From Eimeria praecox (lineage: Eukaryota): a DNA stretch of 64,000 nucleotides. A program made the position numbers and the translations under genes. Numbering within the stretch: position 1 is the stretch's first letter; each line of letters begins with the position of its first letter. The stretch lies in the NCBI GenBank assembly GCA_963920595.1, contig OY986947.1, positions 6,448,001 through 6,512,000 on the forward strand, written 5' to 3'. This document shows positions 1-64,000 of the stretch, piece after piece. The notes under the pieces are model-generated. The model was not told where the DNA came from. It did not search any database and saw only the letters and a list, made by a program, of their open reading frames with translations.

Positions 1-145
1 GATATCGATACCGTAGGGCCCGAGTGCTAGTTTCATTGTTGAGGGTTCCGGTTTGCACCTGTGTGGGTTTTGTGGCAGGTGGATTGTGTGGAGGGGTAGC
101 TGCTGCAGAGAGCATATATGGATGTTCCATGCTGCCGCGGAACAG

Positions 146-148
146 AAA
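146..148 (+). CDS. Putative microexon 1 of unit 1 (AAA, Lys)
   Basis: ggaacag|AAA|gtatgg; the donor is gtatgc in some later units. Confidence 0.55.
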
Positions 149-3100
149 GTATGGAGAGGGTTGTTGGCTTGCGATGGAACGGAGCGGTGTGTGTGACTGG
201 GTGGCAAGAATCAGTATTTTGTTTAGGCAGGGGGTGGTCAAATGAAGTGACTTAATTGTGGATGAGAGGGCGGGGGGGGTGAGGGGGAGGATTGGGACGT
301 TGGTGGCGCATTTGGCAGCATTGGCTTGTTTCTTTAGTGTGGGGTATGGAGGTGTGAGCAAGGCGTGGGAGAAGGGGAGCATGGTGGTTCAATGCACCAG
401 GAAGTATGTTTGGTTTTTCGTCTTCGTAGGAATTGGTAGGTGGGGTGGTCAGGTATTTGAGTAGCGGGGCTTGAAGGAGGCGTGTTGCGGAGCACAATGT
501 GTGTGTCTAATCAAGGGCTGCACCTGGTACCACCGAAAAAATGTTAGCTGGTGTTTTGTCGCTGAATTGTGTTATATGATTGAGGCCCAGGAGAGGGTTT
601 ATTTGTGTGGCTTATGGAGGGGAGAGCTCGTACACTGTAGTCGTGAATGCGTTTAACATACCAGGAGGTACGGTCGACCTGCATTTGGCAAAAGAAGGAG
701 TCGGGCGTTGACGCGGTGTAGACATTAGTGCATTTTACAGTTGGTTTGCAGGATTGCTGAAGTGTGGTTTGTGTGTGAGTGCAGTGAGCGTCAGGGATGA
801 TGCGTGTGAGATGGAGGGTACATGTCGTGCAATGTAGTCGTGAATGGGCTTCACTTATCAGGAAGTGCGTAGGAGGTGGCGTGGCGAATGGTTGGAGGGC
901 CTTGGTGGGCATTATAGGGTAGTGGTGTTTCCATTTAGGTTGCAAGGGCGGTGAAGGGTAGTTTGAATGGCAAAGGCGCCAGAGTGGCAATATTTTGAGG
1001 ATGCGTTTTGGGGTGGGATCTGCATAGCGTCGGGATTGGATACCAGGACATTTGATGAGTGCTTGTGCTGCATGGGGTAGCGTTGGTGGGTCTGCGGCGG
1101 CGCTTTAGCGTAGGTGACCTGAGTAGGAAGCGCCTGACAGTAGCCTCCAGCGTGTTTGCGTGTGTGTGTGTGGAGTATTCACTATTCACCAGGAGGTACG
1201 GTTTATATTGGGGTATAGCCCAAGCACGTGTTTATAAGGGATAGTGGGCAGTTTGGGTTTTTGGGTGCGCATGGAGTGGGCTGTGGCGCCACCCTAGGGC
1301 TGTCCGCTTCGCAAGATGAGATTCCATTGTGTTGGGGATAAGCGTGCAGTTGGAGTGCGATGCAGGTTGCATTGTTGCAGCCCGAGAGGGAGGCGTGAGT
1401 TGCAATTGAACAGGCTTGTGTGCATCAGAAAGTGCGTTTGTCCCTTAGATTGGGGAGGATGCGTGGTGTGCTTATCGGCATTTGGGATGCTGGGCGTTTC
1501 GCAGGGATTAGTTTGTCAGGGACTTTGTTGGGGTTGAGCGCTGTGAACAAGTAAAGCGACGGCGAGGGCTTGGTTGCTGGTTAGCTTCGTGGGCATTTGT
1601 GTGAGCCATTGGATTGGGGTGGTTTGTTGCCTATGGACCTGTTTCAGAGAGTAAGGATTCTTGGGTGGGTGGAGTGTGGCAGGTGGACGAGAATGTTCCT
1701 TGCGTTGTGTGCAAGGCGGGTCTGGATCTATGGTAGGGTAAGCATGGCCTGTTGAGGATGTTGACGGACGGCGTCTAGGAGGTGTTGGGCGCATGCGTTT
1801 CTATACAGCTGGCATGCAGCACACTTTTGGCTGGTTCCGGATGTAATGTTATGCATTAGGGGAGGGATGCGGAGCACTCGAGAAGCAGTGTTCGTTTGTT
1901 CACTCGAGCTCGTGTTGAATCATGATGGGCATGCAGGGTAGCTCGCCACCATGTCAATGCGTCAGAAAGTAGGCGTCGTGGCCAGCTTGCGCCCATATGC
2001 ACTGCTGTATAAGTCAGCAGATATGGTCGAAACTTGTTTCGTGTTTTCGGGAATGAGTATGAATGCGTTATAAGGTGGAAAAGGAGGTGAAGCGTCAGGA
2101 GCAAGATATCGATACCGTAGGGCCCGAGTGCTAGTTTCATTGTTGAGGGTTCCGGTTTGCACCTGTGTGGGTTTTGTGGCAGGTGGATTGTGTGGAGGGG
2201 TAGCTGCTGCAGAGAGCATATATGGATGTTCCATGCTGCCGCGGAACAGAAAGTATGGAGAGGGTTGTTGGCTTGCGATGGAACGGAGCGGTGTGTGTGA
2301 CTGGGTGGCAAGAATCAGTATTTTGTTTAGGCAGGGGGTGGTCAAATGAAGTGACTTAATTGTGGATGAGAGGGCGGGGGGGGTGAGGGGGAGGATTGGG
2401 ACGTTGGTGGCGCATTTGGCAGCATTGGCTTGTTTCTTTAGTGTGGGGTATGGAGGTGTGAGCAAGGCGTGGGAGAAGGGGAGCATGGTGGTTCAATGCA
2501 CCAGGAAGTATGTTTGGTTTTTCGTCTTCGTAGGAATTGGTAGGTGGGGTGGTCAGGTATTTGAGTAGCGGGGCTTGAAGGAGGCGTGTTGCGGAGCACA
2601 ATGTGTGTGTCTAATCAAGGGCTGCACCTGGTACCACCGAAAAAATGTTAGCTGGTGTTTTGTCGCTGAATTGTGTTATATGATTGAGGCCCAGGAGAGG
2701 GTTTATTTGTGTGGCTTATGGAGGGGAGAGCTCGTACACTGTAGTCGTGAATGCGTTTAACATACCAGGAGGTACGGTCGACCTGCATTTGGCAAAAGAA
2801 GGAGTCGGGCGTTGACGCGGTGTAGACATTAGTGCATTTTACAGTTGGTTTGCAGGATTGCTGAAGTGTGGTTTGTGTGTGAGTGCAGTGAGCGTCAGGG
2901 ATGATGCGTGTGAGATGGAGGGTACATGTCGTGCAATGTAGTCGTGAATGGGCTTCACTTATCAGGAAGTGCGTAGGAGGTGGCGTGGCGAATGGTTGGA
3001 GGGCCTTGGTGGGCATTATAGGGTAGTGGTGTTTCCATTTAGGTTGCAAGGGCGGTGAAGGGTAGTTTGAATGGCAAAGGCGCCAGAGTGGCAATATTTT

Positions 3101-6100
3101 GAGGATGCGTTTTGGGGTGGGATCTGCATAGCGTCGGGAGTGGATTCCAGGACATTTGATGAGTGCTTGTGCTGCATGGGGTAGCGTTGGTGGGTCTGCG
3201 GCGGCGCTTTAGCGTAGGTGACCTGAGTAGGAAGCGCCTGACAGTAGCCTCCAGCGTGTTTGCGTGTGTGTGTGTGGAGTATTCACTATTCACCAGGAGG
3301 TACGGTTTATATTGGGGTATAGCCCAAGCACGTGTTTATAAGGGATAGTGGGCAGTTTGGGTTTTTGGGTGCGCATGGAGTGGGCTGTGGCGCCACCCTA
3401 GGGCTGTCCGCTTCGCAAGATGAGATTCCATTGTGTTGGGGATAAGCGTGCAGTTGGAGTGCGATGCAGGTTGCATTGTTGCAGCCCGAGAGGGAGGCGT
3501 GAGTTGCAATTGAACAGGCTTGTGTGCATCAGAAAGTGCGTTTGTCCCTTGGATTGGGGAGGATGCGTGGTGTGCTTATCGGCATTTGGGATGTTGGCGT
3601 TTCGCAGGGATTAGTTTGTCAGGGACTGTGTTGGGGTTGAGCGCTGTGAACAAGTAAAGCGACGGCGAGGGCTTGGTTGCTGCTTAGCTTCGTGGGCATT
3701 TGTGTGAGCCATTGGATTGGGGTGGTTTGTTGCCTATGGACCTGTTTCAGAGAGTAAGGATTCTTGGGTGGGTGGAGTGTGGCAGGTGGACGAGAATGTT
3801 CCTTGCGTTGTGTGCAAGGCGGGTCTGGATCTATGGTAGGGTAAGCATGGCCTGTTGAGGATGTTGACGGACGGCGTCTAGGAGGTGTAGGGCGCATGCG
3901 TTTCTATACAGCTGGCATGCAGCACACGTTTGGCTGGTTCCGGATGTAATGTTATGCATTAGGGGAGGGATGCGGAGCACTCGAGAAGCAGTGTTCGTTT
4001 GTTCACTCGAGCTCGTGTTGAATCATGATGGGCATGCAGGGTAGCTCGCCACCATGTCAATGCGTCAGAAAGTAGGCGTCGTGGCCAGCTTGCGCCCATA
4101 TGCACTGCTGTATAAGTCAGCAGATATGGTCGAAACTTGTTTCGTGTTTTCGGGAATGAGTATGAATGCGTTATAAGGTGGAAAAGGAGGTGAAGCGTCA
4201 GGAGCAAGATATCGATACCGTAGGGCCCGAGTGCTAGTTTCATTGTTGAGGGTTCCGGTTTGCACCTGTGTGGGTTTTGTGGCAGGTGGATTGTGTGGAG
4301 GGGTAGCTGCTGCAGAGAGCATATATGGATGTTCCATGCCGCCGCGGAACAGAAAGTATGGAGAGGGTTGTGGGCATGCGATGGAACGGAGCGGTGTGTG
4401 TGACTGGGTGGCAAGAATCAGTATTTTGTTTATGCAGGGGGTGGTCAAATGAAGTGACTTAATTGTGGATGAGAGGGCGGGCGGGGTGGGGGGGAGGATT
4501 GGGACGTTGGTGGCGCATTTGGCAGCATTGGCTTGTTTCTTTAGTGTGGGGTATGGAGGTGTGAGCAAGGCGTGGGAGAAGGGGAGCATGGTGGTTCAAT
4601 GCACCAGGAAGTATGTTTGGTTTTTCGTCTTCGTAGGAATTGGTAGGTGGGGTGGTCAGGTATTTGAGTAGCGGGGCTTGAAGGAGGCGTGTTGCGGAGC
4701 ACAATGTGTGTGTCTAATCAAGGGCTGCACCTGGTACCACCGAAAAAATGTTAGCTAGTGTTTTGTCGCTGAATTGTGTTATATGATTGAGGCCCAGGAG
4801 AGGGTTTATTTGTGTGGCTTATGGAGGGGAGAGCTCGTACACTGTAGTCGTGAATGCGTTTAACATACCAGGAGGTACGGTCGACCTGCATTTGGCAAAA
4901 GAAGGAGTCGGGCGTTGACGCGGTGTAGACATTAGTGCATTTTACAGTTGGTTTGCAGGATTGCTGAAGTGTGGTTTGTGTGTGAGTGCAGTGAGCGTCA
5001 GGGATGATGCGTGTGAGATGGAGGGTACATGTCGTGCAATGTAGTCGTGAATGGGCTTCACTTATCAGGAAGTGCGTAGGAGGTGGCGTGGCGAATGGTT
5101 GGAGGGCCTTGGTGGGCATTATAGGGTAGTGGTGTTTCCATTTAGGTTGCAAGGGCGGTGAAGGGTAGTTTGAATGGCAAAGGCGCCAGAGTGGCAATAT
5201 TTTGAGGATGCGTTTTGGGGTGGGATCTGCATAGCGTCGGGAGTGGATTCCAGGACATTTGATGAGTGCTTGTGCTGCATGGGGTAGCGTTGGTGGGTCT
5301 GCGGCGGCGCTTTAGCGTAGGTGACCTGAGTAGGAAGCGCCTGACAGTAGCCTCCAGCGTGTTTGCGTGTGTGTGTGTGGAGTATTCACTATTCACCAGG
5401 AGGTACGGTTTATATTGGGGTGTAGCCCAAGCACGTGTTTATAAGGGATAGTGGGCAGTTTGGGTTTTTGGGTGCGCATGGAGTGGGCTGTGGCGCCACC
5501 CTAGGGCTGTCCGCTTCGCAAGATGAGATTCCATTGTGTTGGGGATAAGCGTGCAGTTGGAGTGCGATGCAGGTTGCATTGTTGCAGCCCGAGAGGGAGG
5601 CGTGAGTTGCAATTGAACAGGCTTGTGTGCATCAGAAAGTGCGTTTGTCCCTTGGATTGGGGAGGATGCGTGGTGTGCTTATCGGCATTTGGGATGTTGG
5701 CGTTTCGCAGGGATTAGTTTGTCAGGGACTGTGTTGGGGTTGAGCGCTGTGAACAAGTAAAGCGACGGCGAGGGCTTGGTTGCTGGTTAGCTTCGTGGGC
5801 ATTTGTGTGAGCCATTGGATTGGGGTGGTTTGTTGCCTATGGACCTGTTTCAGAAAGTAAGGATTCTTGGGTGGGTGGAGTGTGGCAGGTGGACGAGAAT
5901 GTTCCTTGCGTTGTGTGCAAGGCAGGTCTGGATCTATGGTAGGGTAAGCATGGCCTGTTGAGGATGTTGACGGACGGCGACTAGGAGGTGTTGGGCGCAT
6001 GCGTTTCTATACAGCTGGCATGCAGCACACTTTTGGCTGGTTCCGGATGTAATGTTATGCATTAGGGGAGGGATGCGGAGCACTCGAGAAGCAGTGTTCG

Positions 6101-9100
6101 TTTGTTCACTCGCGCTCGTGTTGAATCATGATGGGCATGCAGGGTAGCTCGCCACCATGTCAATGCGTCAGAAAGTAGGCGTCGTGGCCAGCTTGCGCCC
6201 ATATGCACTGCTGTGTAAGCCAGCAGATATGGTCGAAACTTGTTTGGTGTTTTCGGGAATGAGTATGAATGCGTTATAAGGTGGAAAAGGAGGTGAAGCG
6301 TCAGGAGCAAGATATCGATACCGTAGGGCCCGAGTGGTAGTTTCATTGTTGAGGGTTCCGGTTTGCACCTGTGTGGGTTTTGTGGCAGGTGGATTGTGTG
6401 GAGGGGTAGCTGCTGCAGAGAGCATATATGGATGTTCCATGCCGCCGCGGAACAGAAAGTATGGAGAGGGTTGTGGGCATGCGATGGAACGGAGCGGTGT
6501 GTGTGACTGGGTGGCGAGAATCAGTATTTTGTTTATGCAGGGGGTGGTCAAATGAAGTGACTTAATTGTGGATGAGAGGGCGGGCGGGGTGGGGGGGAGG
6601 ATTGGGACGTTGGTGGCGCATTTGGCAGCATTGGCTTGTTTCTTTAGTGTGGGGTATGGAGGTGTGAGGAAGGCGTGGGAGAAGGGGAGCATGGTGGTTC
6701 AATGCACCAGGAAGTATGTTTGGTTTTTCGTCTTCGTAGGAATTGGTAGGTGGGGTGGTCAGGTATTTGAGTAGCGGGGCTTGAAGGAGGCGTGTTGCGG
6801 AGCACAATGTGTGTGTCTAATCAAGGGCTGCACCTGGTACCACCGAAAAAATGTTAGCTAGTGTTTTGTCGCTGAATTGTGTTATATGATTGAGGCCCAG
6901 GAGAGGGTTTATTTGTGTGGCTTATGGAGGGGAGAGCTCGTACACTGTAGTCGTGAATGCGTTTAACATACCAGGAGGTACGGTCGACCTGCATTTGGCA
7001 AAAGAAGGAGTCGGGCGTTGACGCGGTGTAGACATTAGTGCATTTTACAGTTGGTTTGCAGGATTGCTGAAGTGTGGTTTGTGTGTGAGTGCAGTGAGCG
7101 TCAGGGATGATGCGTGTGAGATGGAGGGTACATGTCGTGCAATGTAGTCGTGAATGGGCTTCACTTATCAGGAAGTGCGTAGGAGGTGGCGTGGCGAATG
7201 GTTGGAGGGCCTTGGTGGGCATTATAGGGTAGTGGTGTTTCCATTTAGGTTGCAAGGGCGGTGAAGGGTAGTTTGAATGGCAAAGGCGCCAGAGTGGCAA
7301 TATTTTGAGGATGCGTTTTGGGGTGGGATCTGCATAGCGTCGGGATTGGATACCAGGACATTTGATGAGTGCTTGTGCTGCATGGGGTAGCGTTGGTGGG
7401 TCTGCGGCGGCGCTTTAGCGTAGGTGACCTGAGTAGGAAGCGCCTGACAGTAGCCTCCAGCGTGTTTGCGTGTGTGTGTGTGGAGTATTCACTATTCACC
7501 AGGAGGTACGGTTTATATTGGGGTATAGCCCAAGCACGTGTTTATAAGGGATAGTGGGCAGTTTGGGTTTTTGGGTGCGCATGGAGTGGGCTGTGGCGCC
7601 ACCCTAGGGCTGTCCGCTTCGCAAGATGAGATTCCATTGTGTTGGGGATAAGCGTGCAGTTGGAGTGCGATGCAGGTTGCATTGTTGCAGCCCGAGAGGG
7701 AGGCGTGAGTTGCAATTGAACAGGCTTGTGTGCATCAGAAAGTGCGTTTGTCCCTTAGATTGGGGAGGATGCGTGGTGTGCTTATCGGCATTTGGGATGC
7801 TGGGCGTTTCGCAGGGATTAGTTTGTCAGGGACTTTGTTGGGGTTGAGCGCTGTGAACAAGTAAAGCGACGGCGAGGGCTTGGTTGCTGGTTAGCTTCGT
7901 GGGCATTTGTGTGAGCCATTGGATTGGGGTGGTTTGTTGCCTATGGACCTGTTTCAGAGAGTAAGGATTCTTGGGTGGGTGGAGTGTGGCAGGTGGACGA
8001 GAATGTTCCTTGCGTTGTGTGCAAGGCGGGTCTGGATCTATGGTAGGGTAAGCATGGCCTGTTGAGGATGTTGACGGACGGCGTCTAGGAGGTGTTGGGC
8101 GCATGCGTTTCTATACAGCTGGCATGCAGCACACTTTTGGCTGGTTCCGGATGTAATGTTATGCATTAGGGGAGGGATGCGGAGCACTCGAGAAGCAGTG
8201 TTCGTTTGTTCACTCTAGCTCGTGTTGAATCATGATGGGCATGCAGGGTAGCTCGCCACCATGTCAATGCGTCAGAAAGTAGGCGTCGTGGCCAGCTTGC
8301 GCCCATATGCACTGCTGTGTAAGCCAGCAGATATGGTCCAAACTTGTTTCGTGTTTTCGGGAATGAGTATGAATGCGTTATAAGGTGGAAAAGGAGGTGA
8401 AGCGTCAGGAGCAAGATATCGATACCGTAGGGCCCGAGTGGTAGTTTCATTGTTGAGGGTTCCGGTTTGCACCTGTGTGGGTTTTGTGGCAGGTGGATTG
8501 TGTGGAGGGGTAGCTGCTGCAGAGAGCATATATGGATGTTCCATGCCGCCGCGGAACAGAAAGTATGGAGAGGGTTGTTGGCTTGCGATGGAACGGAGCG
8601 GTGTGTGTGACTGGGTGGCAAGAATCAGTATTTTGTTTAGGCAGGGGGTGGTCAAATGAAGTGACTTAATTGTGGATGAGAGGGCGGGGGGGGGTGGGGG
8701 GGAGGATTGGGACGTTGGTGGCGCATTTGGCAGCATTGGCTTGTTTCTTTAGTGTGGGGTATGGAGGTGTGAGGAAGGCGTGGGAGAAGGGGAGCATGGT
8801 GGTTCAATGCACCAGGAAGTATGTTTGGTTTTTCGTCTTCGTAGGAATTGGTAGGTGGGGTGGTCAGGTATTTGAGTAGCGGGGCTTGAAGGAGGCGTGT
8901 TGCGGAGCACAATGTGTGTGTCTAATCAAGGGCTGCACCTGGTACCACCGAAAAAATGTTAGCTAGTGTTTTGTCGCTGAATTGTGTTATATGATTGAGG
9001 CCCAGGAGAGGGTTTATTTGTGTGGCTTATGGAGGGGAGAGCTCGTACACTGTAGTCGTGAATGCGTTTAACATACCAGGAGGTACGGTCGACCTGCATT

Positions 9101-24100: not shown

Positions 24101-27100
24101 TTTGAATGGCAAAGGCGCCAGAGTGGCAATATTTTGAGGATGCGTTTTGGGGTGGGATCTGCATAGCGTCGGGATTGGATTCCAGGACATTTGATGAGTG
24201 GTTGTGCTGCATGGGGTAGCGTTGGTGGGTCTGCGGCGGCGCTTTAGCGTAGGTGACCTGAGTAGGAAGCGCCTGACAGTAGCCTCCAGCGTGTTTGCGT
24301 GTGTGTGTGTGGAGTATTCACTATTCACCAGGAGGTACGGTTTATATTGGGGTATAGCCCAAGCACGTGTTTATAAGGGATAGTGGGCAGTTTGGGTTTT
24401 TGGGTGCGCATGGAGTGGGCTGTGGCGCCACCCTAGGGCTGTCCGCTTCGCAAGATGAGATTCCATTGTGTTGGGGATAAGCGTGCAGTTGGAGTGCGAT
24501 GCAGGTTGCATTGTTGCAGCCCGAGAGGGAGGCGTGAGTTGCAATTGAACAGGCTTGTGTGCATCAGAAAGTGCGTTTGTCCCTTGGATTGGGGAGGATG
24601 CGTGGTGTGCTTATCGGCATTTGGGATGCTGGGCGTTTCGCAGGGATTAGTTTGTCAGGGACTTTGTTGGGGTTGAGCGCTGTGAACAAGTAAAGCGACG
24701 GCGAGGGCTTGGTTGCTTGTTAGCTTCGTGGGCATTTGTGTGAGCCATTGGATTGGGGTGGTTTGCTGCCTATGGACCTGTTTCAGAGAGTAAGGATTCT
24801 TGGGTGGGTGGAGTGTGGCAGGTGGACGAGAATGTTCCTTGCGTTGTGTGCAAGGCGGGTCTGGATCTATGGTAGGGTAAGCATGGCCTGTTGAGGATGT
24901 TGACGGACGGCGTCTAGGAGGTGTAGGGCGCATGCGTTTCTATACAGCTGGCATGCAGCACACTTTTGGCTGGTTCCGGATGTAATGTTATGCATTAGGG
25001 GAGGGATGCGGAGCACTCGAGAAGCAGTGTTCGTTTGTTCACTCGAGCTCGTGTTGAATCATGATGGGCATGCAGGGTAGCTCGCCACCATGTCAATGCG
25101 TCAGAAAGTAGGCGTCGTGGCCAGCTTGCGCCCATATGCACTGCTGTATAAGTCAGCAGATATGGTCGAAACTTGTTTCGTGTTTTCGGGAATGAGTATG
25201 AATGCGTTATAAGGTGGAAAAGGAGGTGAAGCGTCAGGAGCAAGATATCGATACCGTAGGGCCCGAGTGGTAGTTTCATTGTTGAGGGCTCCGGTTTGCA
25301 CCTGTGTGGGTTTTGTGCCAGGTGGATTGTGTGGAGGGGTAGCTGCTGCAGAGAGCATATATGGATGTTCCATGCCGCCGCGGAACAGAAAGTATGGAGA
25401 GGGTTGTGGGCATGCGATGGAACGGAGGGGTGTGTGTGATTGGGTGGCAAGAATCAGTATTTTGTTTATGCAGGGGGTGGTCAAATGAAGTGACTTAATT
25501 GTGGATGAGAGGGCGGGGGGGTGGGGGGGAGGATTGGGACGTTGGTGGTGCATTTGGCAGCATTGGTTTGTTTCTTTAGTGTGGGGTATGGAGGTGTGAC
25601 CAATGCGTGGGAGAAGGGGAGCATGGTGGTTCAATGCACCAGGAAGTATGTTTGGTTTTTCGTCTGCGTGGTTATTGGTAGGTGGGGTGGTCAGGTATTT
25701 GAGTAGCGGGGCTTGAAGGAGGCGTGTTGCGGAGCACAATGTGTGTGTCTAATCAAGGGCTGCACCTGGTACCACCGAAAAAATGTTAGCTGGTGTTTTG
25801 TCGCTGAATTGTGATATATGATTGAGGCCCAGGAGAGGGTTTATTTGTGTGGCTTATGGAGGGGAGAGCTCGTACACTGTAGTCGTGAATGCGTTTAACA
25901 TACCAGGAGGTACGGTCGACTTGCATTTGGCAAAAGAAGGAGTCGGGCGTTGACGCGGTGTAGACATTAGTGCATTTTACAGTTGGTCTGCAGGATTGCT
26001 GAAGTGTGGTTTGTGTGTGAGTGCAGTGAGCGTCAGGGATGATGCGTGTGAGATGGAGGGTACATGTCGTGCAATGTAGTCGTGAATGGGCTTCACTTAT
26101 CAGGAAGTGCGTAGCAGGTGGCGTGGTGAATGGTTGGAGGGCCTTGGTGGGCGTTATAGGGTAGTGGTGTTTCCAGTTAGGTTGCAAGGGCGGTGAAGGG
26201 TGGTTTGAATGGCAAAGGCGCCAGAGTGGCAATATTTTGAGGATGCGTTTTGGGGTGGGATCTGCATAGCGTCGGGATTGGATTCCAGGACATTTGATGA
26301 GTGGTTGTGCTGCATGGGGTAGCGTTGGTGGGTCTGCGGCGGCGCTTTAGCGTAGGTGACCTGAGTAGGAAGCGCCTGACAGTAGCCTCCAGCGTGTTTG
26401 CGTGTGTGTGTGTGGAGTATTCACTATTCACCAGGAGGTACGGTTTATATTGGGGTATAGCCCAAGCACGTGTTTATAAGGGATAGTGGGCAGTTTGGGT
26501 TTTTGGGTGCGCATGGAGTGGGCTGTGGCGCCACCCTAGGGCTGTCCGCGTCGCAAGATGAGATTCCATTGTGTTGGGGATAAGCGTGCAGTTGGAGTGC
26601 GATGCAGGTTGCATTGTTGCAGCCCGAGAGGGAGGCGTGAGTTGCAATTGAACAGGCTTGTGTGCATCAGAAAGTCCGTTTGTCCCTTAGATTGGGGAGG
26701 ATGCGTGGTGTGCTTATCGGCATTTGGGATGCTGGGCGTTTCGCAGGGATTAGTTTGTCAGGGACTTTGTTGGGGTTGAGCGCTGTGAACAAGTAAAGCG
26801 ACGGCGAGGGCTTGGTTGCTGGTTAGCTTCGTGGGCATTTGTGTGAGCCATTGGATTGGGGTGGTTTGTTGCCTATGGACCTGTTTCAGAGAGTAAGGAT
26901 TCTTGGGTGGGTGGAGTGTGGCAGGTGGACGAGAATGTTCCTTGCGTTGTGTGCAAGGCAGGTCTGGATCTATGGTAGGGTAAGCATGGCCTGTTGAGGA
27001 TGTTGACGGACGGCGTCTAGGAGGTGTAGGGCGCATGCGTTTCTATACAGCTGGCATGCAGCACACTTTTGGCTGGTTCCGGATGTAATGTTATGCATTA

Positions 27101-51100: not shown

Positions 51101-54100
51101 TGGAGGGGAGAGCTCGTACACTGTAGTCGTGGATGCGTTTAACATACCAGGAGGTACGGTCGACCTGCATTTGGCAAAAGAAGGAGTCGGGCGTTGACGC
51201 GGTGCAGACATTAGTGCATTTTACAGTTGGTTTGCAGGATTGCTGAAGTGTGGTTTGTGTGTGAGTGCAGTGAGCGTCAGGGATGATGCGTGTGAGATGG
51301 AGGGTACATGTCGTGCAATGTAGTCGTGAATGGGCTTCACTTATCAGGAAGTGCGTAGGAGGTGGCGTGGCGAATGGTTGGAGGGCCTTGGTGGGCGTTA
51401 TAGGGTAATGGTGTTTCCAGTTAGGTTGCAAGGGCGGTGAAGGGTGGTTTGAATGGCAAAGGCGCCAGAGTGGTAATATTTTGAGGATGCGTTTTGGGGT
51501 GGGATCTGCATAGCGTCGGGAGTGGATTCCAGGACATTTGATGAGTGGTTGTGCTGCATGGGGTAGCGTTGGTGGGTCTGCGGCGGCGCTTTAGCGTAGG
51601 TGACCTGAGTAGGAAGCGCCTGACAGTAGCCTCCAGCGTGTTTGCGTGTGTGTGTGTGGAGTATTCACTATTCACCAGGAGGTACGGTTTATATTGGGGT
51701 ATAGCCCAAGCACGTGTTTATAAGGGATAGTGGGCAGTTTGGGTTTTTGGGTGCGCATGGAGTGGGTTGTGGCGTCACCCTAGGGCTGTCCGCGTCGCAA
51801 GATGAGATTCCATTGTGTTGAGGATAAGCGTGCAGTTGGAGTGCGATGCAGGTTGCATTGTTGCAGCCCGAGAGGGAGGCGTGATTTGCAATTGAACAGG
51901 CTTGTGTGCATCAGAAAGTGCGTTTGTCCCTTGGATTGGGGAGGATGCGTGGTGTGCTTATCGGCATTTGGGATGTTGGGCGTTTCGCAGGGATTAGTTT
52001 GTCAGGGACTGTGTTGGGGTTGAGCGCTGTGAACAAGTTAAGCGACGGCGAAGGCTTGGTTGCTGGTTAGCTTCGTGGGCATTTGTGTGAGCCATTGGAT
52101 TGGGGTGGTTTGTTGCCTATGGACCTGTTTCAGAAAGTATGGATTCTTGGGTGGGTGGAGTGTGGCAGGCGGACGAGAATGTTCCTTGCGTTGTGTGCAA
52201 GGCGGGTCTGGATCTATGGTAGGGTAAGCATGGCCTGTTGAAGATGTTGACGGACGGCGCCTAGGAGGTGTTGGGTGCATGCGTTTCTATACAGCTGGCA
52301 TGCAGCACACTTTTGGCTGGTTCCGGATGTAATGTTATGCATTAGGAGAGGGATGCGGCGCACTCGAGAAGCAGTGTTCGTTTGTTCACTCGAGCTCGTG
52401 TTGAATCATGATGGGCATGCAGGGTAGCTCGCCACCATGTCAATGCGTCAGAAAGTAGGCGTCGTGGCCAGCTTGCGCCCATATGCACTGCTGTATAAGT
52501 CAGCAGATATGGTCGAAACTTGTTTCGTGTTTTCGGGAATGAGTATGAATGCGTTATAAGGTGTAAAAGGAGGTGAAGCGTCAGGAGCAAGATATCGATA
52601 CCGTAGGGCCCGAGTGGTAGTTTCATTGTTGAGGGTTCCGGTTTGCACCTGTGTGGGTTTTGTGGCAGGTGGATTGTGTGGAGGGGTAGCTGCTGCAGAG
52701 AGCATATATGGATGTACCATGCCGCCGCGGAACAGAAAGTATGGAGAGGGTTGTGGGCATGCGATGGAACGGAGCGGTGTGTGTGACTGGGTGGCAAGAA
52801 TCAGTATTTTGTTTATGCAGGGGGTGGTCAAATGAAGTGACTTAATTGTGGATGAGAGGGCGGGGGCGGTGGGGGGGAGGATTGGGACGTTGGTGGTGCA
52901 ATTGGCAGCATTGGTTTGTTTCTTTAATGTGGGGTATGGAGGTGTGAGCAAGGCGTGGGGAGAAGGGGAGCATGGTGGTTCAATGCACCAGGAAGTATGT
53001 TTGGTTTTTCGTCTGCGTGGTTATTGGTAGGTGGGGTGGTCAGATATTTGAGTAGCGGGCCTTGAAGGAGGCGTGTTGTGGAGCACAATGTGTGTGTCTA
53101 ATCAAGGGCTGCACCTGGTACCACCGAAAAAATGTTAGCTGGTGTTTTGTCGCTGAATTGTGATATATGATTGAGGCCCAGGAGAGGGTTTATTTGTGTG
53201 GCTTATGGAGGGGAGAGCTCGTACACTGTAGTCTTGAATGCGTTTAACATACCAGGAGGTATGGCCGACTTGCATTTGGCAAAAGAAGGAGTCGGGCGTT
53301 GACGTGGTGTAGACATTAGTGCATTTTACAGTTGGTCTGCAGGATTGCTGAAGTGTGGTTTGTGTGTGAGTGCAGTGAGCGTCAGGGATGATGCGTGGGA
53401 TATGGAGGGTGCATGTCGTGCAATGTAGTCGTGAATGGGCTTCACTTATCAGGAAGTGCGTAGGAGGTGGCGTGGCGAATGGTTGGAGGGCCTTGGTGGG
53501 GCATTATAGGGTAGTGGTGTTTCCAGTTAGGTTGCAAGGGCATTGAAGGGTAGTTTGAATGGCAAAGGCGCCAGAGTGGCAATATTTTGAGGATGCGTTT
53601 TGGGGTGGGATCTGCATAGCGTCGGGATTGGATTCCAGGACATTTGATGAGTGGTTGTGCTGCATGGGGTAGCGTTGGTGGGTCTGCGGCGGCGCTTTAG
53701 CGTAGGTGACCTGAGTAGGAAGCGCCTGACAGTAGCCTCCAGCGTGTTTGCGTGTGTGTGTGTGGAGTATTCACTATTCACCAGGAGGTACGGCTTATAC
53801 TGGGGTATAGCCCAAGCACGTGTTTATAAGGGATAGTGGGCAGTTTGGGTTTTTGGGTGCGCATGGAGTGGGTTGTGGCGTCACCCTAGGGCTGTCCGCG
53901 TCGCAAGATGAGATTCCATTGTGTTGGGGATAAGCGTGCAATTGGAGTGCGATGCAGGTTGCATTGTTGCAGCCCGAGAAGGAGGCATGAGTTGCAATTG
54001 AACAGGCTTGTGTGCATCAGAAAGTGCGTTTGTCCCTTAGATTGGGGAGGATGCGTGGTGTTCGTGGTGTGCGTATCGGCATTTGGGATGTTGGGCGTTT

Positions 54101-57100: not shown

Positions 57101-60100
57101 GGGACGTTGGTGGCGCATTTGGCAGCATTGGCTTGTTTCTTTAGTGTGGGGTATGGAGGTGTGAGCAAGGCGTGGGAGAAGGGGAGCATGGTGGTTCAAT
57201 GCACCAGGAAGTATGTTTGGTTTTTCGTCTGCGTGGTTATTGGTAGGTGGGGTGGTCAGGTATTTGAGTAGCGGGGCTTGAAGGAGGCGTGTTGCGGAGC
57301 ACAATGTGTGTGTCTAATCAAGGGCTGCACCTGGTACCACCGAAAAAATGTTAGCTGGTGTTTTGTCGCTGAATTGTGATATATGATTGAGGCCCAGGAG
57401 AGGGTTTATTTGTGTGGCTTATGGAGGGGAGAGCTCGTACACTGTAGTCGTGAATGCGTTTAACATACCAGGAGGTACGGTCGACCTGCATTTGGCAAAA
57501 GAAGGAGTCGGGCGTTGACGCGGTGCAGACATTAGTGCATTTTACAGTTGGTTTGCAGGATTGCTGAAGTGTGGTTTGTGTGTGAGTGCAGTGAGCGTCA
57601 GGGATGATGCGTGTGAGATGGAGGGTACATGTCGTGCAATGTAGTCGTGAATGGGCTTCACTTATCAGGAAGTGCGTAGGAGGTGGCGTGGCGAATGGTT
57701 GGAGGGCCTTGGTGGGCGTTATAGGGTAATGGTGTTTCCAGTTAGGTTGCAAGGGCGGTGAAGGGTGGTTTGAATGGCAAAGGCGCCAGAGTGGTAATAT
57801 TTTGAGGATGCGTTTTGGGGTGGGATCTGCATAGCGTCGGGATTGGATTCCAGGACATTTGATGAGTGGTTGTGCTGCATGGGGTAGCGTTGGTGGGTCT
57901 GCGGCGGCGCTTTAGCGTAGGTGACCTGAGTAGGAAGCGCCTGACAGTAGCCTCCAGCGTGTTTGCGTGTGTGTGTGTGGAGTATTCACTATTCACCAGG
58001 AGGTACGGTTTATATTGGGGTATAGCCCAAGCACGTGTTTATAAGGGATAGTGGGCAGTTTGGGTTTTTGGGTGCGCATGGAGTGGGTTGTGGCGTCACC
58101 CTAGGGCTGTCCGCGTCGCAAGATGAGATTCCATTGTGTTGAGGATAAGCGTGCAGTTGGAGTGCGATGCAGGTTGCATTGTTGCAGCCCGAGAGGGAGG
58201 CGTGATTTGCAATTGAACAGGCTTGTGTGCATCAGAAAGTGCGTTTGTCCCTTGGATTGGGGAGGATGCGTGGTGTGCTTATCGGCATTTGGGATGTTGG
58301 GCGTTTCGCAGGGATTAGTTTGTCAGGGACTGTGTTGGGGTTGAGCGCTGTGAACAAGTTAAGCGACGGCGAGGGCTTGGTTGCTGGTTAGCTTCGTGGG
58401 CATTTGTGTGAGCCATTGGATTGGGGTGGTTTGTGGCCTATGGACCTGTTTCAGAAAGTATGGATTCTTGGGTGGGTGGAGTGTGGCAGGTGGACGAGAA
58501 TGTTCCTTGCGTTGTGTGCAAGGCGGGTCTGGATCTATGGTAGGGTAACCATGACCTGTTGAGGATGTTGACGGACGGCGACTAGGAGGTGTTGGGCGCA
58601 TGCGTTTCTATACAGCTGGCATGCAGCACACGTTTGGCTGGTTCCGGATGTAATGTTATGCATTAGGGGAGGGATGCGGAGCACTCGAGAAGCAGTGTTC
58701 GTTTGTTCACTCTAGCTCGTGTTGAATCATGATGGGCATGCAGGGTAGCTCGCCACCATGTCAATGCGTCAGAAAGTAGGCGTCGTGGCCAGCTTGCGCC
58801 CATATGCACTGCTGTATAAGTCAGCAGATATGGTCCAAACTTGTTTCGTGTTTTCGGGAATGAGTATGAATGCGTTATAAGGTGGAAAAGGAGGTGAAGC
58901 GTCAGGAGCAAGATATCGATACCGTAGGGCCCGAGTGGTAGTTTCATTGTTGAGGGTTCCGGTTTGCACCTGTGTGGGTTTTGTGGCAGGTGGATTGTGT
59001 GGAGGGGTAGCTGCTGCAGAGAGCATATATGGATGTTCCATGCCGCCGCGGAACAGAAAGTATGCAGAGGGTTGTGGGCTTGCGATGGAACGGAGCGGTG
59101 TGTGTGATTGGGTGGCAAGAATCAGTATTTTGTTTATGCAGGGGGTGGTCAAATGAAGTGACTTAATTGTGGATGAGAGGGCGGGGGGGGTGGGGGGGAG
59201 GATTGGGACGTTGGTGGCGCATTTGGCAGCATTGGCTTGTTTCTTTAGTGTGGGGTATGGAGGTGTGAGCAAGGCGTGGGAGAAGGGGAGCATGGTGGTT
59301 CAATGCACCAGGAAGTATGTTTGGTTTTTCGTCTGCGTGGTTATTGGTAGGTGGGGTGGTCAGGTATTTGAGTAGCGGGGCTTGAAGGAGGCGTGTTGCG
59401 GAGCACAATGTGTGTGTCTAATCAAGGGCTGCACCTGGTACCACCGAAAAAATGTTAGCTGGTGTTTTGTCGCTGAATTGTGATATATGATTGAGGCCCA
59501 GGAGAGGGTTTATTTGTGTGGCTTATGGAGGGGAGAGCTCGTACACTGTAGTCGTGGATGCGTTTAACATACCAGGAGGTACGGTCGACCTGCATTTGGC
59601 AAAAGAAGGAGTCGGGCGTTGACGCGGTGCAGACATTAGTGCATTTTACAGTTGGTCTGCAGGATTGCTGAAGTGTGGTTTGTGTGTGAGTGCAGTGAGC
59701 GTCAGGGATGATGCGTGGGATATGGAGGGTACATGTCGTGCAATGTAGTCGTGAATGGGCTTCACTTATCAGGAAGTGCGTAGGAGGTGGCGTGGTGAAT
59801 GGTTGGAGGGCCTTGGTGGGCGTTATAGGGTAGTGGTGTTTCCAGTTAGGTTGCAAGGGCGGTGAAGGGTGGTTTGAATGGCAAAGGCGCCAGAGTGGCA
59901 ATATTTTGAGGATGCGTTGTGGGGTGGGATCTGCATAGCGTCGGGAGTGGATACCAGGACATTTGATGAGTGGTTGTGCTGCATGGGGTAGCGTTGGTGG
60001 GTCTGCGGCGGCGCTTTAGCGTAGGTGACCTGAGTAGGAAGCGCCTGACAGTAGCCTCCAGCGTGTTTGCGTGTGTGTGTGTGTGGAGTATTCACTATTC

Positions 60101-63100
60101 ACCAGGAGGTACGGCTTATACTGGGGTATAGCCCAAGCACGTGTTTATAAGGGATAGTGGGCAGTTTGGGTTTTTGGGTGCGCATGGAGTGGGTTGTGGC
60201 GTCACCCTAGGGCTCTCCGTTTCGCAAGATGAGATTCCATTGTGTTGGGGATAAGCGTGCAGTTGGAGTGCGATGCAGGTTGCATTGTTGCAGCCCGAGA
60301 GGGAGGCGTGAGTTGCAATTGAACAGGCTTGTGTGCATCAGAAAGTGCGTTTGTCCCTTAGATTGGGGAGGATGCGTGGTGTGCTTATCGGCATTTGGGA
60401 TGCTGGGCGTTTCGCAGGGATTAGTTTGTCAGGGACTTTGTTGGGATTGAGCGCTGTGAACAAGTAAAGCGACGGCGAAGGCTTGGTTGCTGGTTAGCTT
60501 CGTGGGCATTTGTGTGAGCCATTGGATTGGGGTGGTTTGTTGCCTATGGACCTGTTTCAGAGAGTAAGGATTCTTGGGTGGGTGGAGTGTGGCAGGTGGA
60601 CGAGAATGTTCCTTGCGTTGTGTGCAAGGCGGGTCTGGATCTATGGTAGGGTAAGCATGGCCTGTTGAAGATGTTGACGGACGGCGTCTAGGAGGTGTTG
60701 GGCGCATGCGTTTCTATACAGCTGGCATGCAGCACACTTTTTGCTGGTTCCGGATGTAATGTTATGCATTAGGGGAGGGATGGAGAGCACTCGAGAACAG
60801 TGTTCGTTTGTTCACTCGAGCTCGTGTTGAATCATGATGGGCATGCAGGGTAGCTCGCCACCATGTCAATGCGTCAGAAAGTAGGCGTCGTGGCCAGCTT
60901 GCGCCCATATGCACTGCTGTATAAGTCAGCAGATATGGTCGAAACTTGTTTCGTGTTTTCGGGAATGAGTATGAATGCGTTATAAGGTGGAAAAGGAGGT
61001 GAAGCGTCAGGAGCAAGATATCGATACCGTAGGGCCCGAGTGGTAGTTTCATTGTTGAGGGTTCCGGTTTGCACCTGTGTGGGTTTTGTGGCAGGTGGAT
61101 TGTGTGGAGGGGTAGCTGCTGCAGAGAGCATATATGGATGTACCATGCCGCCGCGGAACAGAAAGTATGGAGAGGGTTGTGGGCATGCGATGGAACGGAG
61201 GGGTGTGTGTGATTGGGTGGCAAGAATCAGTATTTTGTTTATGCAGGGGGTGGTCAAATGAAGTGACTTAATTGTGGATGAGAGGGCGGGGGGGTGGGGG
61301 GGAGGATTGGGACGTTGGTGGTGCATTTGGCAGCATTGGTTTGTTTCTTTAGTGTGGGGTATGGAGGTGTGACCAGTGCGTGGGAGAAGGGGAGCATGGT
61401 GGTTCAATGCACCAGGAAGTATGTTTGGTTTTTCGTCTGCGTGGTTATTGGTAGGTGGGGTGGTCAGGTATTTGAGTATCGGGGCTTGAAGGAGGCGTGC
61501 TGCGGAGCACAATGTGTGTGTCTAATCAAGGGCTGCACCTGGTACCACCGAAAAAATGTTAGCTGGTGTTTTGTCGCTGAATTGTGATATATGATTGAGG
61601 CCCAGGAGAGGGTTTATTTGTGTGGCTTATGGAGGGGAGAGCTCGTACACTGTAGTCGTGAATGCGTTTAACATACCAGGAGGTACGGTCGACTTGCATT
61701 TGGCAAAAGAAGGAGTCGGGCGTTGACGCGGTGTAGACATTAGTGCATTTTACAGTTGGTCTGCAGGATTGCTGAAGTGTGGTTTGTGTGTGAGTGCAGT
61801 GAGCGTCAGGGATGATGCGTGTGAGATGGAGGGTGCAGGTCGTGCAATGTAGTCGTGAATGGGCTTCACTTATCAGGAAGTGCGTAGCAGGTGGCGTGGC
61901 GAATGGTTGGAGGGCCTTGGTGGGCGTTATAGGGTAGTGGTGTTTCCAGTTAGGTTGCAAGAGCGGTGAAGGGTGGTTTGAATGGCAAAGGCGCCAGAGT
62001 GGCAATACTTTGAGGATGCGTTTTGGGGTGGGATCTGCATAGCGTCGGGATTGGATTCCAGGACATTTGATGAGTGGTTGTGCTGCATGGGGTAGCGTTG
62101 GTGGGTCTGCGGCGGCGCTTTAGCGTAGGTGACCTGAGTAGGAAGCGCCTGACAGTAGCCTCCAGCGTGTTTGCGTGTGTGTGTGTGGAGTATTCACTAT
62201 TCACCAGGAGGTACGGCTTATATTGGGGTATAGCCCAAGCACGTGTTTATAAGGGATAGTGGGCAGTTTGGGTTTTTGGGTGCGCATGGAGTGGGCTGTG
62301 GCGTCACCTTAGGGCTCTCTGTTTCGCAAGATGAGATTCCATTGTGTTGGGGATAAGCGTGCAATTGGAGTGCGATGCAGGTTGCATTGTTGCAGCCCGA
62401 GAGGGAGGCGTGATTTGCAATTGAACAGGCTTGTGTGCATCAGAAAGTGCGTTTGTCCCTTAGATTGGGGAGGATGCGTGGTGTTCGTGGTGTGCGTATC
62501 GGCATTTAGGATGTTGGGCGTTTCGCAGGGATTAGTTTGTCAGGGACTGTGTTGGGGTTGAGCGCTGTGAACAAGTTAAGCGACGGCGAGGGCTTGGTTG
62601 CTGGTTAGCTTCGTGGGCATTTGCGTGAGCCATTGGATTGGGGTGGTTTGTTGCCTATGGACCTGTTTCAGAAAGTAAGGATTCTTGGGTGGGTGGAGTG
62701 TGGCAGGTGGACGAGAATGTTCCTTGCGTTGTTTGCAAGGCAGGTCTGGATCTATGGTAGGGTAACCATGACCTGTTGAGGATGTTGACGGACGGCGACT
62801 AGGAGGTGTTGGGCGCATGCGTTTCTATACAGCTGGCATGCAGCACACGTTTGGCTGGTTCCGGATGTAATGTTATGCATTAGGGGAGGGATGCGGAGCA
62901 CTCGAGAAGCAGTGTTCGTTTGTTCACTCTAGCTCGTGTTGAATCATGATGGGCATGCAGGGTAGCTCGCCACCATGTCAATGCGTCAGAAAGTAGGCGT
63001 CGTGGCCAGCTTGCGCCCATATGCACTGCTGTATAAGTCAGCAGATATGGTCGAAACTTGTTTCGTGTTTTCGGGAATGAGTATGAATGCGTTATAAGGT

Positions 63101-63992
63101 GGAAAAGGAGGTGAAGCGTCAGGAGCAAGATATCGATACCGTAGGGCCCGAGTGGTAGTTTCATTGTTGAGGGTTCCGGTTTGCACCTGTGTGGGTTTTG
63201 TGGCAGGTGGATTGTGTGGAGGGGTAGCTGCTGGAGAGAGCATATATGGATGTTCCATGCCGCCGCGGAACAGAAAGTATGGAGAGGGTTGTGGGCATGC
63301 GATGGAACGGAGCGGTGTGTGTGACTGGGTGGCAAGAATCAGTATTTTGTTTATGCAGGGGGTGGTCAAATGAAGTGACTTAATTGTGGATGAGAGGGCG
63401 GGGGGGGTGGGGGGGAGGATTGGGACGTTGGTGGCGCATTTGGCAGCATTGGCTTGTTTCTTTAGTGTGGGGTATGGAGGTGTGAGCAAGGCGTGGGAGA
63501 AGGGGAGCATGGTGGTTCAATGCACCAGGAAGTATGTTTGGTTTTTCGTCTGCGTGGTTATTGGTAGGTGGGGTGGTCAGGTATTTGAGTATCGGGGCTT
63601 GAAGGAGGCGTGTTGCGGAGCACAATGTGTGTGTCTAATCAAGGGCTGCACCTGGTACCACCGAAAAAATGTTAGCTGGTGTTTTGTCGCTGAATTGTGT
63701 TATATGATTGAGGCCCAGGATAGGGTTTATTTGTGTGGCTTATGGAGGGGAGAGCTCGTACACTGTAGTCGTGAATGCGTTTAACATACCAGGAGGTACG
63801 GTCGACCTGCATTTGGCAAAAGAAGGAGTCGGGCGTTGACGCGGTGTAGACATTAGTGCATTTTACAGTTGGTTTGCAGGATTGCTGAAGTGTGGTTTGT
63901 GTGTGAGTGCAGTGAGCGTCAGGGATGATGCGTGTGAGATGGAGGGTACATGTCGTGCAATGTAGTCGTGAATGGGCTTCACTTATCAGGAA
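146..63992 (+). CDS. Putative internal part of a spliced gene made of 244 3-nt microexons (8 per unit) encoding [EEEEK(K/R)KK]n, a charged single alpha-helix-like repeat; start and stop would lie outside the window
   Basis: Each unit has eight CAG|RRR|GTRNG sites with intron-sized GT...AG gaps of 252, 261, 194, 328, 233, 216, 315 and 281 nt, which with 24 exonic nt sum to 2104. Concatenated triplets give K-E-E-E-E-K-(K/R)-K. The only exonic variant I found is AAA<->AGA. No transcript evidence; phase 0 is assumed. Confidence 0.6.
268..296 (+). other. G-run cluster with G-quadruplex potential, once per unit, length-polymorphic
   Basis: gggcggggggggtgagggggaggattggg has four runs of >=3 G. The poly-G length varies by +/-1 between units and accounts for part of the 2103-2105 period variation. 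Confidence 0.6.
401..403 (+). CDS. Putative microexon 2 of unit 1 (GAA, Glu)
   Basis: tcaatgcaccag|GAA|gtatgt. Confidence 0.6.
665..667 (+). CDS. Putative microexon 3 of unit 1 (GAG, Glu)
   Basis: tttaacataccag|GAG|gtacgg. Confidence 0.6.
862..864 (+). CDS. Putative microexon 4 of unit 1 (GAA, Glu)
   Basis: ttcacttatcag|GAA|gtgcgt. Confidence 0.6.
1161..1172 (+). repeat. Short (TG)6 microsatellite in each unit, ~20 nt upstream of putative microexon 5
   Basis: gcgtgtgtgtgtgtgg; one extra TG in unit 29 (~60071-60085). Confidence 0.8.
1193..1195 (+). CDS. Putative microexon 5 of unit 1 (GAG, Glu)
   Basis: ttcactattcaccag|GAG|gtacgg. Confidence 0.6.
1429..1431 (+). CDS. Putative microexon 6 of unit 1 (AAA, Lys)
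   Basis: gtgtgcatcag|AAA|gtgcgt. Confidence 0.6.
1648..1650 (+). CDS. Putative microexon 7 of unit 1 (AGA, Arg; AAA, Lys in 17 of 30 units)
   Basis: cctgtttcag|AGA|gtaagg; other units have cag|AAA|gtaagg or cag|AAA|gtatgg. Confidence 0.6.
1966..1968 (+). CDS. Putative microexon 8 of unit 1 (AAA, Lys)
   Basis: tcaatgcgtcag|AAA|gtaggc. Confidence 0.6.
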
Positions 63993-64000
63993 GTGCGTAG

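Follow-up and report, generated by a model that had tools for sequence, protein, structure and literature searches.

We describe here a 64,000-nucleotide stretch of Eimeria praecox contig OY986947.1 (positions 6,448,001 to 6,512,000; the window) that is one head-to-tail array of 30.4 units of 2102–2115 bp, in which each complete unit carries eight forward-strand sites where a three-nucleotide triplet is enclosed by sequences matching a spliceosomal acceptor and a donor. The array is very likely a chain of one-codon exons or descended from one, a statement that sums three explanations weighed below (a living gene, an amplified relic of such a gene, and splicing in another phase or with variable skipping). 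The best explanation, and judging from the DNA a likely one, is that the triplets are microexons; more specifically, the window is probably the inside of one very large eukaryotic gene, in which splicing would join at least 244 one-codon exons, in phase 0, to encode a helix of E4(K/R)4 repeats. A preliminary description of this DNA had proposed the microexon interpretation, which gains support, short of proof, because variation between units is depleted at the acceptors, the phase-0 product has the charge pattern of an ER/K helix, and comparable chains are found in fungi.

The motif CAG-RRR-GTRNG (R, purine) occurs 243 times on the forward strand of the window and 0 times on the reverse strand, a two-strand count that the preliminary description had proposed as a check, and with one variant at 26671 the sites total 244, eight per unit. 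That description had given 244 forward-strand sites of this form and had noted that the eight donors keep a purine at +3 and G at +5 while +4 and +6 vary; the form holds at 243 of the 244 sites and fails only at the variant, where donor +3 is C, and the eight unit-1 sites are correct in coordinates, triplets and donors (Table 1). By the criteria for GT-AG introns, 243/244 donors have GT, a +3 purine and +5 G, and 244/244 acceptors are CAG. TAG is about as common as CAG in the unit (35 versus 39), yet it is used at none of the 244 acceptors. The triplets are AAA (108), GAA (62), GAG (61) and AGA (13), and the gaps between consecutive sites are 194–330 nt across the whole window. Site 7 has the sole variable triplet, AGA (Arg) in 13 of 30 units and AAA (Lys) in the other 17, site 8 lies inside the unit's longest invariant run (1908–2008, 101 nt), and the CAG-GAG of site 3 is also a tandem acceptor, at which the codon could be skipped. 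The sequence between sites had been called mostly unalignable, and indeed only 1 of 28 intron pairs aligns better than all 300 shuffles, two further pairs being weakly alike (z 4.7 and 3.5). The aligned pair is formed by the 3' halves of introns 2 (~541–661) and 3 (~732–858) (z 12.6, 0/300 shuffles), and because only these two introns clearly align, the sites appear to have been kept while most of their flanks diverged past recognition.

Chance tests on the motif were run on one unit, because the units are copies of one another. Dinucleotide shuffles gave a mean of 0.15 and a maximum of 3 occurrences of the RRR motif (n=5000), and a mean of 0.99 and a maximum of 6 for CAG-NNN-GTRNG, compared with the 8 seen; such a shuffle check had been suggested in the preliminary description. 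Its estimate of well under one chance match per unit is too low for motifs looser than RRR; GTRNG alone occurs 62 times per unit, and looser motifs are therefore expected to match once or twice. When any of 41 spacings was allowed, 0 of 3000 order-2 Markov units reached eight with CAG and 33 of 2000 shuffles did so with YAG.

Variation was scored by column across 30 units, with the expectation taken from base-specific rates and p-values from permutation. Only 2 of 160 columns from -15 to donor +2 are variable where 10.4 are expected (p 0.0017), as are 0 of 80 from -10 to -1 (p 0.004) and 4 of 160 from -20 to -1 (p 0.017); at other CAG sites 22 of 465 columns are variable. None of the 32 AG and GT columns varies, and among the 72 columns of CAG, triplet, GT and +5 G a single one does (5.1 expected), that one being the Arg/Lys (AGA/AAA) change. 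Donor changes occur at +4, at +6 and once at +3, and +4 and +6 vary freely, as splice sites do. A non-coding satellite should carry no coding-type constraint in its unit, and the depletion at acceptors and exons, of moderate strength (p 0.002–0.04 by window of columns), does not agree with this. The array resembles satellite higher-order repeats in its head-to-tail units of diverged sub-units, neighbours being more alike than distant units; it differs from them in that the element retained between sub-units is a splice-site pair, where variation is low.

The joined triplets contain no stop in any of the three phases. In phase 0 they read as 123 Glu, 108 Lys and 13 Arg and nothing else, with four acidic residues followed by four basic ones, and places opposite charges at 8/8 of the i+4 pairs and 6/8 of the i+3 pairs. 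Eight random purine triplets would yield this block pattern with p 0.0003–0.002, and 8 of 70 orders do so given the composition. An alpha-helix rises 0.15 nm per residue, and 244 residues would make a helix of ~37 nm. In silico, the phase-0 product has the features that define ER/K sequences, namely E, K and R only, alternating blocks and no hydrophobic seam. E/K/R repeats of the ER/K pattern form single alpha-helices (PMC9281390), and designed repeats become more stable when Arg replaces Lys (PMC5347031). The phase-0 product shares its Glu and Lys/Arg blocks and its i+3/i+4 pairs with designed E4K4 peptides and with the single alpha-helix (SAH) domains of the ER/K type; natural SAH sequences are described as highly variable (PMC9281390, PMC5347031), whereas the one predicted here would have a near-perfect period over at least 244 residues and would be spelled codon by codon.

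Chains similar in kind were sought in metagenome contigs with a search pattern made up of three sites spaced as in the window, which was present in at least 114 stretches; 113 loci were analysed, and none of them shares more than three 18-mers with the window. A chain rule was then applied that asked for 10 or more sites with a median gap of no less than 45, no triplet making up over 60% of them, and no open reading frame (ORF) over 70% of the span. This rule, whose thresholds were set after the loci had been inspected, was passed by 24 of the 113 metagenome loci, among the matches listed, and by none of the 22 prokaryote or the 4 viral loci; prokaryote repeats fitting the pattern mostly have one dominant triplet or lie inside an ORF. 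The 24 passing loci contain 4 stops, all in L038, in 714 triplets, compared with 75 expected for the whole set, a hand-picked subset of 22 loci contains 0 in 654, and L071, outside both sets, has 3 in 45. Not every locus is an independent case: L017, L047 and L076 represent a single gene, as do L030 and L066. P-loop GTPase motifs lie upstream in 10 of the 22 hand-picked loci, many of the others being short contigs, and the relatives of these GTPases are G-domain proteins of Lactarius, Scleroderma, Pisolithus and Amanita and of Basidiomycota clusters; PF01926 is above the cut-off in one of five scanned proteins and below it in three. Proteins P0045 and P0072, which span every intron position, align on both sides of the chain in L036 and in L069, and P0072 aligns weakly after that of L037. 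Twelve consecutive single-codon exons of L030 match the intron-free protein P0180 at 9/12 positions and P0175 at 7/12 (0/5000 shuffles each), and the same run matches P0188 weakly (12/5000 shuffles) and P0174 not at all; the four proteins were chosen from 17, are relatives and not the same gene (80–82% identical over the query exon), and are taken as mRNA-derived from their length, and the exon-walking rule was written after the L030 DNA had been viewed. On this basis, splicing of consecutive one-codon exons in fungi has good indirect support. For the window the fungal chains are an analogy and not proof, and we regard them as analogues and not relatives, because their introns differ and no sequence is shared.

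Like the window, the Agaricomycete chains have stop-free YAG-NNN-GT sites that are rich in GAA, AGA and AAA; where tested, the fungal sites join in phase 0, the phase assumed for the window. Each of their loci repeats one near-identical ~65-nt intron among varied codons at 11–79 sites, whereas the window has eight diverged 194–330-nt introns, fixed codons and no sequence in common with them. Ten loci (L011, L017, L030, L036, L037, L051, L055, L058, L066 and L069) are Agaricomycete MMR_HSR1-like GTPase genes with 21–79 detected one-codon exons each, 3' of the helical region and, where the contig extends that far, preceding a conserved C-terminal block. The use of several different repeated introns of ~65 nt among the GTPase loci suggests that their chains were amplified separately. 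Intron-free protein records have a variable segment at the chain position, possibly a hypervariable recognition segment. Many NCBI gene models (P0052–P0240) end, by eye, at or just before the chain-start motif; such truncation would be expected if annotation fails at 3-nt exons. Our literature search found no paper on one-codon-exon chains in Agaricomycete G-domain genes. L041 (+ strand, 3646–7140) is a different gene, small and of fungal type, in which most exons are single codons; the 37 sites detected have 23 different triplets and no stop, and the product would be charged first and hydrophobic toward its end, with no GTPase motif, and L065 has two near-identical chains of 14–15 sites in opposite orientation at either end of a 4253-base contig.

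Several points weigh against a living, spliced chain in the window. The motif's count ranks third among 319,488 arbitrary gapped motifs, and shuffled units attain equal p-values in such a ranking; the count is informative only in so far as the motif equals the splice consensus. Variation is not reduced at donor positions +1 to +6 (4/48 columns variable, 3.7 expected), the depletion upstream fades as the column window widens (7/200 from -25 to -1, p 0.04), and the -15 boundary was picked after the variation profile had been seen. Branch points matching YTNAY are found near only 3 of 8 acceptors and 2 of 31 other CAG sites, which is a weak signal, and the upstream pyrimidine tract is also weak (57% versus 43% in the unit); the fungal chain introns are 50–76 nt long, with clear branch points and without sequence shared with the window. 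With units 98.3% identical, even a dead copy that was amplified recently would be expected to have its sites intact. Finally, phase 0 is assumed, and in phase 2 the sole exon polymorphism is silent.

Some of these points would be accommodated by a non-coding satellite with eight protein-binding boxes per unit, or by a chance motif picked after the fact, since arbitrary motifs match the count, GTRNG is common on this G/T-rich strand and the branch points are weak. Five decoys from the top of the arbitrary-motif ranking behave differently from the splice motif. All eight of its gaps are at least 197 nt (p 6e-5, compared with 0.08–0.71 for the decoys), its triplets have purines at 24/24 bases (p 1e-6, post hoc), and 1 of 120 columns is variable in the 15 bases ending at the acceptor, compared with 5–9 of 75–120 for the decoys; spacing, purine-only triplets and low upstream variation thus set the motif apart, and no decoy joins these properties with the charge pattern. 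The box is moreover an acceptor plus a donor consensus, degenerate at +4 and +6, and the prokaryote repeats that fit the search pattern all failed the chain rule. We therefore consider a non-coding or accidental origin of the sites improbable.

The main rival, unlikely but ahead of the others, is a relic, in which eight exons from a genuine one-codon-exon gene were amplified to form a satellite, now unspliced or spliced only at its edges. The homogeneity of the array is satellite-like, with divergence growing with distance, at least 64 kb are spent on 732 coding bases, young copies retain splice sites without selection, and the invariance of AG and GT is not significant by itself (0/32; p ~0.18 for the separate 24-column sets). 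Against a relic speak the low variation that acceptors have gained during unit divergence (p 0.002–0.04 by window of columns) and an only exon change that is Arg/Lys at middling frequency, and 0 of 10 further variant places from the public sequencing runs fall in the core, though only ~0.8 would be expected there.

A quite unlikely variant of the splicing hypothesis is that the triplets are joined in another phase, giving a Lys/Arg-rich basic repeat, or that skipping is so variable that the product is a mixed population. The openness of the three phases and the silence of AGA/AAA in phase 2 would allow the former, and the latter has a precedent in the nank arrays of Tuber melanosporum, which are described as alternatively spliced (PMC4986451, PMC13449251). 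Balanced charge in exact blocks of four is, however, found only in phase 0, the tested fungal chain joins in phase 0, and heavy skipping would presumably make a fixed charge register pointless.

The array itself we regard as real, because contigs from public sequencing runs fill its unit bins and bridge the unit-to-unit junction. Contigs of three such runs span 30/30 bins with many variants, and those of a fourth span 27; no RNA run was listed among the runs with the repeat, which speaks neither for nor against splicing. The 30 complete units differ by 1.7% on average (98.3% alike), neighbours by 1.0% and distant units by ~2.2%. The window holds only repeat, as it would if the assembly had multiplied a single unit, but the graded differences between units, together with the contigs of the three runs, leave such an artefact hardly credible. 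In four other runs (X5–X8) there are 1–5 short, mostly near-identical pieces of the repeat at depth 2–25, traces of the same repeat among which no diverged relative was found, and an exact 22-base piece of the unit had no match in prokaryote genomes or viral contigs. Contig joints in run X1 (window 699–1919) were considered as splice junctions and rejected; because they cluster at the unit's GATC, GANTC and CTNAG sites, which we take to be the enzyme sites of a proximity-ligation library, they are read as proximity-ligation chimeras. An array of RNA genes was rejected, as an Rfam search of 1–6500 gave no match, and so was a contiguous ORF, as 0 of the 7 window ORFs have a Pfam match; the longest stop-free stretch in the window is 215 codons. 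Tandem Repeats Finder, with a period limit of 500, reported nothing for the window, the unit being 2.1 kb. GC content is flat at 52%, and strand asymmetry is strong throughout 1–64000 (GC skew +0.43, AT skew -0.18). Two units (starting near 52591 and 61017) share a 9-base insertion in intron 6, which widens the gap from 216 to 225, and in two units a substitution (42432, 61377) gives rise to an additional CAG-TGC-GTGGG site 36 nt upstream of exon 2, probably too near that exon for use.

Among known systems the closest are the Tuber nank (NACHT-ankyrin) genes, in which arrays of tens of codon-sized exons are reported to be alternatively spliced and are described as serving diversification of an immune-type receptor (PMC4986451, PMC13449251). 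The likeness lies in many consecutive one-codon exons parted by introns; like those arrays, the window has a long run of 3-nt segments with acceptor and donor, 244 sites in all. The differences are in size (tens of exons against at least 244 predicted), in evidence (splicing is reported for nank and predicted from sequence here) and apparently in role, since the window's four triplets in a fixed eight-step order with one Arg/Lys polymorphism do not look like diversification. The micro-exon genes (MEGs) of Schistosoma use symmetrical micro-exons to encode small proteins that have a signal peptide and are secreted, and hundreds of one-codon exons or a satellite-like unit are not described for them in the part of that paper at hand (PMC4015677); as in the window the exons are symmetrical and skipping keeps the frame, although those of the window are all 3 nt.

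A possible course of events is that an intron-plus-codon cassette was duplicated and its introns then diverged to give the eight-cassette block, in which introns 2 and 3 still align, and that unequal crossing-over amplified this block. Each added unit would lengthen the protein by eight residues and keep both frame and charge register. Because a 3-nt exon is too short for exon definition, we propose that the spliceosome would recognise the 194–330-nt introns by intron definition and remove them one after another; skipping an exon would lose a single residue but not the frame. The resulting ER/K helix, at least 244 residues long, would serve as a rigid spacer or tether with a length set by unit number. 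The sites were also considered as recursive-splicing points, which was rejected: AG-GT is read directly at only 2 of 8 sites, and sites with zero spacing occur once per unit.

Table 1. Predicted features of the array and examples of fungal chains (window coordinates, except in the last two rows, which use those of the named locus)
Feature	Position	Strand	Details
Tandem array	1..64000	+	31 anchors, 30 complete units; both ends outside window
Predicted 3-nt exon, unit 1 site 1	146..148	+	AAA, Lys in phase 0; donor gtatgg
Predicted 3-nt exon, unit 1 site 2	401..403	+	GAA, Glu; donor gtatgt
Predicted 3-nt exon, unit 1 site 3	665..667	+	GAG, Glu; donor gtacgg
Predicted 3-nt exon, unit 1 site 4	862..864	+	GAA, Glu; donor gtgcgt
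Predicted 3-nt exon, unit 1 site 5	1193..1195	+	GAG, Glu; donor gtacgg
Predicted 3-nt exon, unit 1 site 6	1429..1431	+	AAA, Lys; donor gtgcgt
Predicted 3-nt exon, unit 1 site 7	1648..1650	+	AGA in unit 1; donor gtaagg
Predicted 3-nt exon, unit 1 site 8	1966..1968	+	AAA, Lys; donor gtaggc
Eight predicted GT-CAG introns, unit 1	149..2249	+	194-328 nt, G/T-rich
Predicted introns 1-4, unit 1	149-400, 404-664, 668-861, 865-1192	+	
Predicted introns 5-8, unit 1	1196-1428, 1432-1647, 1651-1965, 1969-2249	+	
Older cassette-duplication trace	541..858	+	3' halves of introns 2 and 3 align
Non-consensus site, unit 13 site 6	26671..26679	+	deviates only in C at donor +3; AG, triplet, GT and +5 G kept
Last site in window	63990..63998	+	site 4 of partial unit 31, with donor
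GTPase-gene chain, L036	4745-12320	+	
GTPase-gene chain, L030	5827-9603	+	

The preliminary description had also claimed novelty, in that no case of hundreds of consecutive one-codon exons was known. Our literature search, outside which most subscription journals lie, found none either, but the claim was overstated in so far as tens in a row are already published for Tuber nank. What would be new relative to known arrays is the number of exons (hundreds, about an order of magnitude more), the homogenised eight-exon unit and a periodic product where known arrays diversify. In the fungal GTPase family, a hypervariable protein segment may be missing from annotations, because gene models often stop where the chains begin. 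If the array is spliced, it is the longest run of one-codon exons found, compared with tens in print, and it would be a natural test of the spliceosome on exons too short for exon definition, hundreds per transcript, and of how much skipping is tolerated where every skip preserves the frame. It would also mean that satellite-masked DNA can be 1% coding, under selection, and missed by ORF finders and most spliced aligners. By a narrow margin of belief, we favour the view that a living gene here spells a rigid E4(K/R)4 rod through at least 244 splicing events over more than 64 kb, that satellite-style gain and loss of units tunes the rod's length, and that, together with the GTPase chains of mushroom fungi, codon-by-codon exons may be a widespread gene design hidden under repeat masking.

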